From a virus, in the IMG/VR virus record IMGVR_UViG_3300022856_000003: 64,000 bases of DNA. One strand, written 5' to 3'. Of this stretch, positions 3,182 to 51,711 are shown piece by piece. A program made the translations under genes and the position numbers. The stretch's first letter is position 1, and every line of letters begins with the position of its first letter. The notes beneath the pieces were generated by a model, which did not search any database, had not been told where the DNA came from, and saw only the letters and a program-made list of their open reading frames with translations.

Positions 3182-3775
3182 ATGAGCCGCCTCAAGACCA
3201 TCGTGGAGATCGAGAAGATCCTCCGCGACCATGTGACCAACGGGGAAGTGGACGCCGATGGCGATCCGAGGAACTATGGTCATCCGCTCCATGACAGTAA
3301 GGCCCGCTATGCGTGGCTCGTCGCTGCGGACGCCTTGAAGCCTCATCCGATCCCCGCTGCCATGCCGACCCGCGAGCGCATCAAGGAGCTGGAGGTCGTG
3401 TGGTGGCCTCTAACGATGGGGAAGACGAACAGGTCCGAGGATTGGACCGAGACCCTCCTAGCCGTTCTGACGGCAGAGGAGGCGGTCTGGGGCCTGCGTT
3501 TCGAGTCCTACCTCGATGTCTCAGGCTGGGACCGCTCCGATAGCGGTGACGTTGAGTACTCGCTCAACGCTGGGAATAGCGACAAGCACGATGAGGATCC
3601 TGTCGTCAGCCTCGTCATCAAGCGCGACATCTCATCCTGGGAGTGGTTCGTTCATTCCGACTCCTCATGGGGCGAGAAAATCGCTCAAGGCACCGGAAAC
3701 CTAGCCATCGAAGCCATCGTCGCGGGTCTCTGGGCCTTCCGAACCGCATGTGACGCACGAGGAGTGGAGCTGTGA
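3182..3775 (+). CDS. hypothetical protein
   Basis: Coupled ORF. Confidence 0.65.
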   Translation: MSRLKTIVEIEKILRDHVTNGEVDADGDPRNYGHPLHDSKARYAWLVAADALKPHPIPAAMPTRERIKELEVVWWPLTMGKTNRSEDWTETLLAVLTAEEAVWGLRFESYLDVSGWDRSDSGDVEYSLNAGNSDKHDEDPVVSLVIKRDISSWEWFVHSDSSWGEKIAQGTGNLAIEAIVAGLWAFRTACDARGVEL

Positions 3776-4416
3776 CACCGGACGAATACTACGCCCACGT
3801 CAGCCCGCCGCGTAAAGCCTTATCGAAGCTACTTAGTGGCCTCGCGCAGATCGTACTCGATGCGGGCTCTGGCAATTCCGTAGGCTGGCGAGGCGCAGTC
3901 CGCGCCATCAACTCGCTGCCGATGCTGGCGGAAGAGATCGAGATTGCCGAGAATCCGCCGTACAGCTACGAGACGAAGACGCCATGGGAGATGGGTCAGC
4001 TCGGTTGGCAGGTAGAGAACACCGTCAACTTGCTCGGGTGGGGTAAGTCCACTGGATGCTCGATTCGCATCCGCCGTTGGGACTGGCATGGCGACCATGG
4101 TGATGCCCACTTCCTGGTGAACTACACGACAGAAGACGGGTACCAGGACGCCTACGACCGATGCTGCCGTAAGGCGCTCCAGGCGTGGAAGGAGTATCGA
4201 AAGCCGGGATGCCCGCCCAATGGCATCGGCAAGGCATTGAAGCGAGACAAGCTCAAAGAGGGCATGCGCGACCGCCTCTTCGGCGACGACGACACGAAGG
4301 TCAACACCACCGTTGAGGTGCTGCTCGCGGAACTCGACAATGCGCTTGGCTTGCCGATGTTCGCCAACGAAGAAGACCCAGTCGAGAACGCTCTCGACAC
4401 GGTCCAGGAGGATTAG
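3772..4416 (+). CDS. hypothetical protein with acidic C-terminal tag
   Basis: Ends DPVENALDTVQED. Confidence 0.7.
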   Translation: MTPDEYYAHVSPPRKALSKLLSGLAQIVLDAGSGNSVGWRGAVRAINSLPMLAEEIEIAENPPYSYETKTPWEMGQLGWQVENTVNLLGWGKSTGCSIRIRRWDWHGDHGDAHFLVNYTTEDGYQDAYDRCCRKALQAWKEYRKPGCPPNGIGKALKRDKLKEGMRDRLFGDDDTKVNTTVEVLLAELDNALGLPMFANEEDPVENALDTVQED

Positions 4417-4620
4417 ATGTCGATGAAGCTAAATCAGGAGCAGACGAACTTTCTCCTCAGCCTCCTGCATGACGAGTGGCAGAACGCGGACGAAGAAGAT
4501 CTTGCCGACCTCGAGCTGATCGAGGCGACCGTGCGGGCTTCCATCGCAGAGGCTCATGGTCTCCCGTCCGACTCCGGTTCGCTTTGCATCCTCAACATCA
4601 CGCCGTCGAAGGAGACCTAG

Positions 4621-4941
4621 ATGGAACCGACCGCATCAGAAGTACTCGCTGACGTGATAGCGAAGGCTGTAGTCAAGAAGATGAGAGGGACCTCCTCGGT
4701 CCTCTCCTCCATCCTTGCCTTCCTGCTGGTCGGATTGCCTATCGCATCCATCATCTACGCCGCCGAGAAGTCGCAGAACAAGCCGTCCGACGAAGGTCCT
4801 TGGTCGCTCGTACAACCCGCTCAGCACATGAGCGACAATCAACAGATCCCCGCCATCTACACGGCAGAGATCGACGGTCGACGCTGTCTCGTACTCATGG
4901 GAGTACTGGCCGATAGCCTCGACTGCGAGGAGAGAGACTGA
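4621..4941 (+). CDS. hypothetical membrane protein
   Basis: Hydrophobic stretch VLSSILAFLLVGLPIASIIY. Confidence 0.6.
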   Translation: MEPTASEVLADVIAKAVVKKMRGTSSVLSSILAFLLVGLPIASIIYAAEKSQNKPSDEGPWSLVQPAQHMSDNQQIPAIYTAEIDGRRCLVLMGVLADSLDCEERD

Positions 4942-5567
4942 TGGGTAATATCGGCGGCCTGATGAGGCGAGGTGCCTTGTCCATCGACACTGTTCGACCA
5001 GTGGCTCGACAAGTCTGTCTGGACCTGTTCCCGACACTCATCAAGGTGGTCGATGCCGAACACGGTGTTCTCTTCGAGTGGGTCCACGAAGATGACCGCG
5101 CCGCCGCCTACCAGGGCGAAGCCTTCTGCTGGTACCAGTACAACCGCTCGAAGGTCGGTGGAAAGCCCATCCGATGGGGTGAGTTCGGCTGGTGGCTACG
5201 AGGCCGGATCGAGGCCCACACTGCCGACCGACTCAGCGGAGTCGTAAAGCACTGGGACGAAGGTGTCGGTGAAACCTGGCTACCAGACCTCGAGAAGCAC
5301 AAGACCCCCTGGGAATACCAGCGTGGGTACCTGAGCAACTCGACCTCGGTGTGGGCTGACTGCGCGTTAGTTCTCGCTGCCTTCTCGGGATACAAGAAGT
5401 TGCCTGCGGGACTCGATCAGAAGTACATCGACGACTACCCCGAATGGGTCCAGATCGCCTCATGCCCCGCCCCAAAACAGCCGCCGATGTGGTGGAAGTT
5501 GCTCACGGGCAAGTTGAAGCCGAAGACCGAAGTCGACGAAGTACTCGACATCATTGGAGAAGACTGA
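4941..5567 (+). CDS. hypothetical protein with acidic C-terminal tag
   Basis: Ends KTEVDEVLDIIGED. Confidence 0.7.
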   Translation: MGNIGGLMRRGALSIDTVRPVARQVCLDLFPTLIKVVDAEHGVLFEWVHEDDRAAAYQGEAFCWYQYNRSKVGGKPIRWGEFGWWLRGRIEAHTADRLSGVVKHWDEGVGETWLPDLEKHKTPWEYQRGYLSNSTSVWADCALVLAAFSGYKKLPAGLDQKYIDDYPEWVQIASCPAPKQPPMWWKLLTGKLKPKTEVDEVLDIIGED

Positions 5568-49726: not shown

Positions 49727-49793
49727 CCGACCGCGCCCGTTGTGCTACTCTACGGATGTTCAAGCACGTCGCCCGATGCACTCCGAGGTGGAG
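49723..49793 (+). promoter_or_regulatory. extended -10 promoter plus GAGGT-loop hairpin
   Basis: TTGACC-17-TACTCT (TGn); TGTTCA at 49757; CTCC-GAGGT-GGAG at 49781-49793. Confidence 0.75.
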
Positions 49794-49799
49794 AAGCCA

Positions 49800-50411
49800 T
49801 TGTCCAAGTTAGCCAAACTCCGAAATCTCAAAGTCAAGAAGACCGTCGACCGACTCGGTGAGTCGCGTAATGCCGCTCGTGAGGCTCTGCTGAGCGAGAT
49901 GGAGAGGTTCGGTCTCGAAGCCCGTGCGTCCATTGAAATGGAGCGACGGGTGTCGCTCGACCACAACTTTGGAGAGACGCTCTACGGACACGAGTTCAAG
50001 TTCCGAATCAGTCGACTGTCACTGTACGGAGTGAGGGTTCTCGAACCAGCTACGTGGCATTCTGTCGTCATCGTCGAGATGCACGACAAGGGTCTTGAGG
50101 TGCGACTGCCGCCGGTCACTGGATTCGCTACGGTCATGAAGGGTCGAGCGAAGCCGCATTTCGAGAAGCACCTCCGCGACACCCTGTTCAAGGCCCTTCC
50201 TTTGGACGAGTACAATCTCGTCGATGAGGTGAACTGTCTCTTCGCCAACGGTGTCGAGTTCGTGCTGTCCAATCTGGGTGAGACCTTGAGTCACATCATG
50301 GCGCTCCCATTCTCGTCTCCCAATTGGATTGAAGCGTTGAGCCAAGTCACCGAAGAGATGATCACTGCGTCGTCGCTGGCGGAAGCCATCGACTTCATGA
50401 TGGAGGACTGA
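49800..50411 (+). CDS. hypothetical protein with acidic tag
   Basis: TTG start after GGAG; ends SLAEAIDFMMED. Confidence 0.6.
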   Translation: MSKLAKLRNLKVKKTVDRLGESRNAAREALLSEMERFGLEARASIEMERRVSLDHNFGETLYGHEFKFRISRLSLYGVRVLEPATWHSVVIVEMHDKGLEVRLPPVTGFATVMKGRAKPHFEKHLRDTLFKALPLDEYNLVDEVNCLFANGVEFVLSNLGETLSHIMALPFSSPNWIEALSQVTEEMITASSLAEAIDFMMED

Positions 50412-50973
50412 TGTCCATCCCCGTTCTCCAGGCCGCAATCGCGACAGCAAGCTATGACCTCTCAAAGGATCTGGCTGGCGAGAACGCGGTTGGCATGTAC
50501 CCCTCTCCACGTAACCTCTGGAAGGAGGACGGCGTACAGCAGTGTCCTCGCTGCTTCCTGCGGAGGCGTCTTGCCGAGTACTCGCTACAGGGTCGCCAGA
50601 CCCGAGCGTGCTACCGATGTCTCATCAGTCATGGCCTCGCATGTGGACTGGCCATCGGAGTCGACCGAGTGTTCGCTGCGCTCTCCGAAGGATGGAACCC
50701 TGTCGATCCTCGAGCCCGAGCACACATCCTCAGCTCCACTCCTGACTTCGCCGTCGAGAGCATGGTCAATTGCGTGGACATGCGTCTGTTCAAGCAGATG
50801 AACATTGGGGATGGCATGCCAGTCGAGCCCTACATGCGTCACGCCGCTGAGCCCGCGCTGTGGATGCTCGATGTTTCCTTGCCGCCCGAATATCAGCCGC
50901 CTCGGTGGCTGGTGCCATTCCTCATCAAGATGGTGGGGCGAGAGAACGTACCGAAGTCCGAAGGAGGTGAATT

Positions 50974-51711
50974 TTGAGCAGCAAGCTCGCCAGGCTCAAG
51001 GGTCTCAAGAAGTCTTCCCTCGCTTCACCCATCAAGCCCAAAGGCGGCGCGATGAACGGGCTCGAGGACGCCATCATCATGGACATGGCTGGCGGTGTGA
51101 CTGCCCTGGGTGCCATCGCATCCGCGAAGGGCGGGTCCGAATGGAATGAGGAGAGCGTCGAGATCATCCCTGATGTGGTGGTCACGGCGAGCCAACCATC
51201 CGCGATACTCATCGAAATGGACGGCATCGAGCTTGTCGAGGAGATGGTGAACGCTGCCGAACTCGTCTACCCACAGGTTCTCGTCGCGCTCTCGAAAGAG
51301 ACGACGAAGGTGTTCGCTGGTAATCCAGCCCACTACCTCATCAACAAGGACATCGGTGAGAAGTACTCGAAGTCCGATGTCATCGTCGCCATCGTGGGCA
51401 AGATGCTCAGAGTCCAAGGGTGGAAGTACCTCGCGAAGAGCAAGCGATGGCGTTCGCCCATTTGGCTGTTTCCCACGATGACCGTCACCTGGGAAACGAT
51501 GGAGAGCATGATCCGTGAGGAGATCATTGAACGCGAGGAAAGCACTCTGGCCCTACCAGCTCCGACGGAGACAGTGGAGCCTGTCGACGACTTCGCAGAC
51601 ATGCCGGATGTCCTAGCCAACCTGGGTACCGCCAGTTGGTCTGAACCAGGTCACCAGAGTGCGAATCTGGGGCTCGACCTTCCCAACATCGACGACCTGT
51701 TGGGGGACTGA
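50974..51711 (+). CDS. hypothetical protein with acidic tag
   Basis: AGGAGGT SD; ends LDLPNIDDLLGD; N-terminus (MSSKLARLKGLK) resembles that of 49800..50411. Confidence 0.65.
   Translation: MSSKLARLKGLKKSSLASPIKPKGGAMNGLEDAIIMDMAGGVTALGAIASAKGGSEWNEESVEIIPDVVVTASQPSAILIEMDGIELVEEMVNAAELVYPQVLVALSKETTKVFAGNPAHYLINKDIGEKYSKSDVIVAIVGKMLRVQGWKYLAKSKRWRSPIWLFPTMTVTWETMESMIREEIIEREESTLALPAPTETVEPVDDFADMPDVLANLGTASWSEPGHQSANLGLDLPNIDDLLGD

Follow-up and report, generated by a model that had tools for sequence, protein, structure and literature searches.

A possible terminal docking peptide in a phage window

The docking of proteins on a hub through a short terminal peptide is a known principle. The cargo-loading peptides of encapsulins, the encapsulation peptides of microcompartments, the C-terminal helix of CheZ and the N-terminal helix of FliM are portable terminal peptides that address one receptor, and p97 and Vps4 remodel their clients via short motifs of clients or adaptors (the MIM tails of ESCRT-III, VIM and the HbYX tail), MIM1 being a C-terminal amphipathic helix on such clients. 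Here we considered a stretch of 64,000 nt from the virus record IMGVR_UViG_3300022856_000003 of IMG/VR (hereafter, the window), in which many unrelated proteins, a Ycf46-type AAA+ ATPase among them, end in a similar acidic amphipathic helix (hereafter, the tag). The window is part of a 144-kb uncultured phage contig found in several public metagenomes, for which no close cultured phage was found. About 82 kb of this genome, corresponding to the window and its flanks, were covered by the analysis.

As in p97/Cdc48 and Vps4/CdvC, a classical-clade AAA+ motor is here tied to short terminal peptides. Unlike those systems, the phage ATPase has neither an N nor a MIT domain, a single Walker A/B set and no HbYX end, the motor is itself tagged, and the clients would be unrelated phage proteins. 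The closest gene set is that of Ycf46, Ycf35 (DUF1257) and DUF2997 of cyanobacteria, plastids and mobile elements, the same three families being adjacent in the window. A tandem AAA+ ATPase with an inactive first module was also found beside PspA (PMC11237479); the first module is apparently inactive here too, and neither PspA nor DUF3150 was recognised in the window. The sliding clamp gp45 of T4 is the one hub that reads a C-terminal motif with an L-D core on gp33, gp55 and gp43 (PMC9690074), hence one short motif on unrelated phage proteins, as for the tag. In T4, however, the motif is strict and carried by a handful of proteins, whereas here there are about 21 in 64 kb and no clamp was seen in the about 82 kb. 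The tag also resembles the encapsulin, microcompartment and CheZ/FliM peptides in being portable and in occurring at either protein end, but we recognised neither a shell nor an encapsulin nor a receiver domain in the DNA that we examined. Our literature search found no paper on shared tails, or on their function, in the Ycf46/DUF1257/DUF2997 module, nor on such genome-wide phage tags.

A shared tag on unrelated proteins

In the window 128 genes were called, all on the + strand (only this strand was modelled, and database calls for overlapping stretches agree). An earlier note, made by reading the letters, had listed 24 stops preceded by similar tails, and all of them are present at the positions that it gave. 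We considered as a strict match the pattern h-L-[DE]-x-x-h (h, hydrophobic) within the last 18 residues of a called gene. There were 19 matches among the 128 genes, compared with 1.7 expected from internal windows (binomial p=7.5e-15), while 2000 shuffles of the tails averaged 3.3 matches and never gave more than 11; the enrichment that the note had proposed to check against such controls is thus borne out. A related pattern is most frequent within the last 10 residues, with 18 matches versus at most 6 in any other 10-residue bin. In a leave-one-out profile, 16 tails scored at least 8, a value reached by only 0.7% of the internal windows, and the top 22 scores, all of at least 6, belonged to 21 of the 24 listed tails and to one unlisted tail (stop 32108). 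The weak members of the list are those at stops 22958 and 25866, and about 21 tails can be considered solid. Roughly every sixth protein of the window carries the tag.

For out-of-sample tests the profile was trained on the window genes only. It matched 5 of 24 C-termini in the flanks of the same genome (0.7 expected) and, at a looser threshold, 49 of 199 C-termini in six syntenic related phages (20 expected, p=4e-9). These relatives (L044, L045, L048, L051, L052 and L053) were obtained via protein look-ups, the gene calls of L051 being taken from the database; searches of viral_contigs and genome_contigs yielded no member of the clade. Unrelated phage loci showed no enrichment (124 of 1011 genes versus 118 expected), nor was the window tag enriched in Vibrio phage Ares1 and mycobacteriophage Firecracker, two cultured phages with related ATPases. 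The results for the six relatives and the unrelated loci agree with a lineage-specific tail, a point that the note had proposed to test on homologues; the motif is looser in the relatives and the tests of single loci with fixed patterns gave mixed results. As a separate observation, three adjacent small genes of Ares1 (L054, 41015-41935) end in acidic, Pro-led, hydrophobic tag-like tails, which are not significant genome-wide.

The tag is also not a repeat of the DNA. At the residues common to the tags, codon identity is no better than the codon usage of the genome predicts (synonymous codon identity 0.525 versus 0.506 expected), in agreement with the earlier suggestion of protein-level selection, and tags occur on 12 of 78 translationally coupled genes versus 12 of 49 uncoupled ones, so that overlapping ribosome-binding sites of downstream genes do not account for them. 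The absence of synonymous conservation and of a tie to translational coupling removes both the DNA-repeat and the ribosome-binding-site artefacts. We consider practically negligible the chance that composition, ribosome-binding-site overlap, a DNA repeat or ordinary terminal helices explain the whole pattern: one member (stop 41741) is probably a family helix, five tags resemble a generic helix-capping box, and purine-rich ribosome-binding sites may account in part for the acidic residues that trail the tag, but the enrichment is strong over internal, shuffled and unrelated controls and was confirmed out of sample. The tag is thus confirmed as real, lineage-wide and acting at the protein level.

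The consensus is acidic-h-x-h-L-D-x-h, which corresponds to an acidic two-turn amphipathic helix; its hydrophobic moment is highest at 100 degrees, it has a net charge of -3.2 on average, and 2-10 residues trail the core Asp. A Pro-rich linker before the tag, noticed at the first reading, is modestly borne out (Pro 8.7% in the linkers versus 4.4%, p=0.01). The tagged proteins are not paralogues, except for one weak pair (16320..16592 and 16664..17068). Copies were found also at the N-terminus (8 of 335 versus 1.2 expected), and some proteins hold two to four copies. Placement beyond folded domains, as first proposed, is supported, for example, by the protein 6511..6813, whose residues 1-80 are covered by phrog_11947, with the tag after it. 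Comparison with homologues agrees, in general, with a tag outside the fold; the tail at stop 41741 probably belongs to its fold, and we discounted it because unrelated radical SAM homologues have a helix at the same place. Another origin was considered and rejected: five tags fit a pattern for scraps of an AAA lid helix, but Pfam gives no such match. Matches of the tag to GpsB and PII in PDB sequences are at chance level.

Among the relatives, the tag is retained on the orthologues of the AAA ATPase, of the GHKL and WGR proteins and of the 50974 family despite differing linkers before it, and is gained or lost on others, such as the ligase and the gene ending at 38930 (four orthologues without it), which is the behaviour of a portable, selected peptide. 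Precisely, the convergent codons, the place beyond folded domains, the gain and loss on orthologues and the tandem copies together support a docking or address tag.

The shape and placement of the tag bear on what it could do. Known C-terminal degrons are nonpolar at their end, and a strictly C-terminal position, as for a degron, is not what we found here. A role in turnover, either as a degron for a host protease or as an acidic cap against C-terminal proteases, is improbable, since the variable distance to the stop and the N-terminal and tandem copies argue against a carboxyl-end signal and a protective cap requires no hydrophobic periodicity. On the other hand, 10 of the 24 tails end in Asp, a membrane segment occurs in none of 23 tagged proteins versus 14 of 105 others, and phage adaptors of host proteases exist (PMC6873191).

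It is highly improbable that the tag is a sliding-clamp-binding motif, comparable to the C-terminal LDFL of T4 gp33 and gp55. [LI]-D-F-h is found in three tags, the window profile gives the gp55 tail a score of 8.0 (PMC9690074), and ligase and exonuclease are classic clamp clients; however, none of the 24 tags fits [ST]LDF[LF], the beta-clamp motif (conserved Gln, aromatic end) or a PIP box, the loose LDF form being present in three of 24, and neither a clamp nor a polymerase was recognised in the about 82 kb. The DnaB/DnaC set suggests the use of the host polymerase.

Loading of proteins into a virion or a shell is, in our opinion, a faint prospect. It would be consistent with a tagged 937-residue mosaic protein of the left flank (L050:4499-7312), which carries a T4 gp23-like fragment, and multivalent copies would suit a lattice. 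Ligase, ATPases and exonuclease would be unusual cargo, and the reading is unlikely because the phage has a separate N-terminal leader class without the tag. The capsid targeting sequence of T4 type, a ten-residue N-terminal leader ending in Glu, is not the tag and marks this separate cluster: small proteins at 28551-31275 share an N-terminal leader resembling it, and none has the C-terminal tag, as the note had stated for its internal-head-like cluster.

The ATPase module as candidate reader

The ATPase (39367..41052, +) is a Ycf46-type protein tagged after a disordered linker and our candidate motor. According to a structure comparison of its model, it folds like the two AAA modules of p97/Cdc48/Rix7. 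Walker A/B and the Arg-finger region are intact in the C-terminal module, while the first module has no recognisable Walker A; in the monomer model its own tail is unplaced, with predicted local distance difference test (pLDDT) values under 50. It adjoins an NrdG-like radical SAM protein of the module (41151..41741, +), whose discounted tag-like end is probably the family helix turned acidic, and two untagged candidate adaptors, a DUF2997-like protein (41815..42012, +; from an orthologue alignment, one orthologue having a faint PF11211 match) and a DUF1257, or Ycf35-like, protein (42079..42555, +; model pLDDT 84), hence a tandem AAA+ with both families nearby. For the DUF1257 protein a fold search gave no clear match (best Z 4.8). 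Both adaptor families are untagged in all clade members.

The acidic tail is found on 11 of 12 ATPases of the clade (100% support) versus 1 of 108 outside, and the clade ATPases have also gained specific conserved arginines. Homologues from outside the clade frequently have a basic h-[DE]-h tail at this position (14 of 40 viral and 12 of 108 other homologues versus a background of 4%). A search of the window with only the ATPase tail picked out 13 genes at distances above 5 kb (1.9 expected), and in the relatives tag-like tails are denser near the ATPase (14 of 68 versus 9 of 127, p=0.009).

The sharing of the ATPase tail was not limited to the clade. At 32 unrelated phage loci, genes within 3 kb match the tail of their own ATPase 19 times versus 5.5 expected (p=5e-6), and farther genes 12 times versus 8.3 expected; the near-gene signal comes from the ATPases with a motif tail (17 versus 2.1 expected) and not from the others (2 versus 3.4). 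One of the neighbours sharing the tail at these loci is DUF3150. Five whole genomes were read for distant copies, including that of an unrelated 190-kb phage (G001), in which the ATPase has a basic tail of pattern G-E-[IT]-K-R-x-h-x-h that is shared by two of its neighbours and by three non-paralogous genes at distances of 40, 46 and 108 kb. The window and three of the four other genomes lack this pattern, loose single matches being the most that was found. Neighbour sharing, together with the distant copies in G001 and in the window, indicates that, as a rule, the tail stays within the module, and that it can reach distant genes and has done so widely here. As the tail of the ATPase recurs on other proteins in unrelated phages whatever its sequence, it is probably an address label, the remodelling machine that it would serve being so far undescribed. 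We also noted that the ATPase of G001 contains an intein with a homing endonuclease and that a distant tail-sharing protein of 887 aa has a weak intein match (L063:7040-9988 and L065:8658-11321, respectively).

On this comparative ground, we give about an even chance to the tag being a docking helix for the AAA/DUF1257/DUF2997 machine that has spread from a few neighbours to many early proteins. The tag would be read by the Ycf46-type machine (ATPase, DUF1257 and DUF2997) or by a partner that binds the ATPase's own tail. Several binding sites may be offered by the untagged DUF1257/DUF2997 pair or by the ATPase ring, a multivalent receptor of this kind being suited to the tandem copies, and tail-bearing clients and motor would meet at a common site, where the p97-like motor, by analogy with p97 and Vps4, might extract, unfold or disassemble the clients. 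Candidate clients are proteins of DNA ends (ligase, WGR protein and the Cas4-like exonuclease of the flank), the GHKL ATPase, and coiled-coil and fast-evolving early proteins.

A more specific version, possible and somewhat less than evenly balanced in our judgement, is a self-contained, ubiquitin-free marking of clients, in which a p97-like ATPase and two small adaptors would read a lineage-specific peptide shown by the ATPase itself; genes would join or leave the set by about ten residues, and about a sixth of the early proteins would be covered.

Several points weigh against the ATPase machine as reader. Four of the five whole genomes have no distant copies of their own ATPase tail, and G001 was chosen because its neighbours shared that tail. 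Charge co-variation between the ATPase tail and DUF1257/DUF2997 is not clean, and several of the cases behind the excess near the ATPase in the relatives are the radical SAM family helix. Several patterns, as well as the class of motif-tail ATPases, were defined after the data were seen. Furthermore, the window tag is an amphipathic helix with 2-10 free residues after it, found also at the N-terminus, while the tails of the family elsewhere are strand-like and at the very end; given this different shape and placement, the acidic tag may be a separate motif and the ATPase merely one more client. Helices of this type are also found at the end of T4 gp32 and of SSB-like proteins from other phages, without a link to the module, and the genome beyond the about 82 kb examined could encode another reader.

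These last points lead to a different hub, namely a host protein (RNA polymerase, a polar scaffold, a receiver domain, a chaperone or a protease) or a phage replication protein that reads an acidic helix of the gp32/SSB or CheZ/LD type, with the ATPase as one of its clients. We consider this unlikely on balance, yet a serious alternative. The T4 gp32 tail is an acidic amphipathic end like the tag and scores 11.7 on the window profile, with the difference that in T4 one hub carries the tail and many partners read it, whereas in the window the tail is on many proteins but not on the SSB. In L009, L010 and L038, SSB homologues and the gene after the ATPase end in similar helices, their ATPases being basic-tailed; moreover, 11 of the 24 tags fit the LD-type pattern, and several conserved clients act on DNA ends. 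By contrast, the SSB of the window clade ends in a host-like acidic Ile-Pro-Phe tip, DnaB, DnaC, primase, RecA and RuvC are all without the tag, and such a hub leaves unexplained the co-variation of ATPase and neighbour tails in unrelated phages. The SSB-like protein of the window lies at 61127-62050; the host-type tip is that of the clade, and the gp32-like helix belongs to the more distant L009, L010 and L038, which have the same replication gene order.

Returning to the ATPase machine, the earlier idea of a phage hub addressing a whole class of proteins is supported as regards a docking or address tag at the protein level, and its option of an AAA unfoldase module gains comparative support; the clamp fails the motif test and virion loading is unlikely. 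We conclude that the tag follows the known docking principle in a form of its own, for which one definite candidate reader can be put forward and tested; we found no description of a phage marking so many of its proteins with the tail of its own AAA+ ATPase. If this is true, a candidate reader is named for a genome-wide class of phage tags, the Ycf46/Ycf35/DUF2997 set, long an orphan in cyanobacteria and plastids, gains a testable mode of action, clients become predictable from sequence alone, and lineage-specific pairs of tag and receptor could be used to address proteins.

Tagged genes and other elements of the genome

The window encodes DnaC-like, DnaB-like, primase, SSB-like, helicase, ThyX and ligase proteins, a GroES homologue and many small unknown genes, and it is followed in the flank by RecA, the Cas4-like exonuclease and RuvC. 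Most tagged proteins have no match in Pfam, PHROG, NCBIfam or Atlas. All the tagged genes described below are on the + strand.

In the first part of the window the tag is carried by unknown proteins at 3772..4416, 10488..11435 and 15601..16164; by 4941..5567, whose homologues at 25866-26351 and in L044 are untagged; by the phrog_11947 protein (6511..6813); by 6991..7428, with a Pro-rich linker; by 7879..8118, whose start is uncertain; by a mosaic protein with coiled-coil and Cys-rich parts (8666..9742); and by 16320..16592 and the next gene 16664..17068, the paralogue pair mentioned above. The gene 22440..22958 has a strong N-terminal and a weak C-terminal copy, and in 22955..23575, with a coiled-coil body, a possible N-terminal copy seen by eye is below the profile threshold. 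The ATP-dependent DNA ligase (24811..25866) has a weak tag, its orthologue being tagged in L048 and untagged in L052. The extra tail at stop 32108 makes 31824..32108 (score 7.7, hydrophobic N-terminus) a possible member.

Further on, the WGR-domain protein (32558..33052) is tagged as are its orthologues in L045 and L048, and is followed by a tagged unknown protein (33052..33810) and by 36214..36747, whose orthologue is tagged in L045 and untagged in L048. Two tagged Cys-rich proteins precede the ATPase: in 38613..38930 the tag extends the protein beyond its four untagged orthologues, and L053 has a different, tag-like extension, and 38954..39259 is directly upstream of the ATPase. After the module, the GHKL-type ATPase (43273..44877), with a coiled-coil C-terminal half, is tagged, and its ten closest homologues end in similar tails while distant ones do not. 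It is followed by two tagged proteins (44877..45344 and, coiled-coil, 45344..46294), by 49776..50411, tagged and with a basic N-terminal leader, by the clade-conserved 50974..51711, with two copies (three to four in tandem in the homologue P0152), and by 52365..52700, with an N-terminal copy. The basic amphipathic leader of 49776-50411 and 50974-51711 is kept in orthologues and could pair with the acidic tag.

As regards the flank, the T4 gp23-like fragment of the 937-residue protein is the stretch that contains Gol, the peptide by which the Lit defence protease senses infection, so that the protein might conceivably serve as a decoy. Another protein of the same locus (L050:1607-2473) is lipoprotein-like, with MopE repeats fused to a thioredoxin-like domain; a MopE search gave repeat-level matches only.

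Other elements were noted in the window. A GroES/Cpn10 homologue (36769-37077, E=5e-14) is possibly a gp31-like capsid co-chaperonin, and a clade-conserved KhpA-like KH protein (49427-49726) and a weak KOW-motif protein (53410-53706) are possible RNA regulators. A promoter-like repeat, in which a conserved CCGTTG-x-TAC core is followed by a GTTCA box, is found at 8124, 9783, 24030 and 49737, upstream of genes, and gives no standard sigma70 match. Finally, a dispersed palindrome with core GAAATCGATT[TG]C is present in 19 copies, inside genes and at stops (1252, 2673, 7715, 9741, 13222, 16024, 22749, 28373, 30968, 34994, 36116, 38929, 41324, 45602, 47633, 53247, 53811, 59147 and 62147). The relatives hold their own variants (one in L045/L048, one in L051/L052 and one in L053), and these lineage-specific variants suggest that the palindrome is a clade-wide DNA-binding site.

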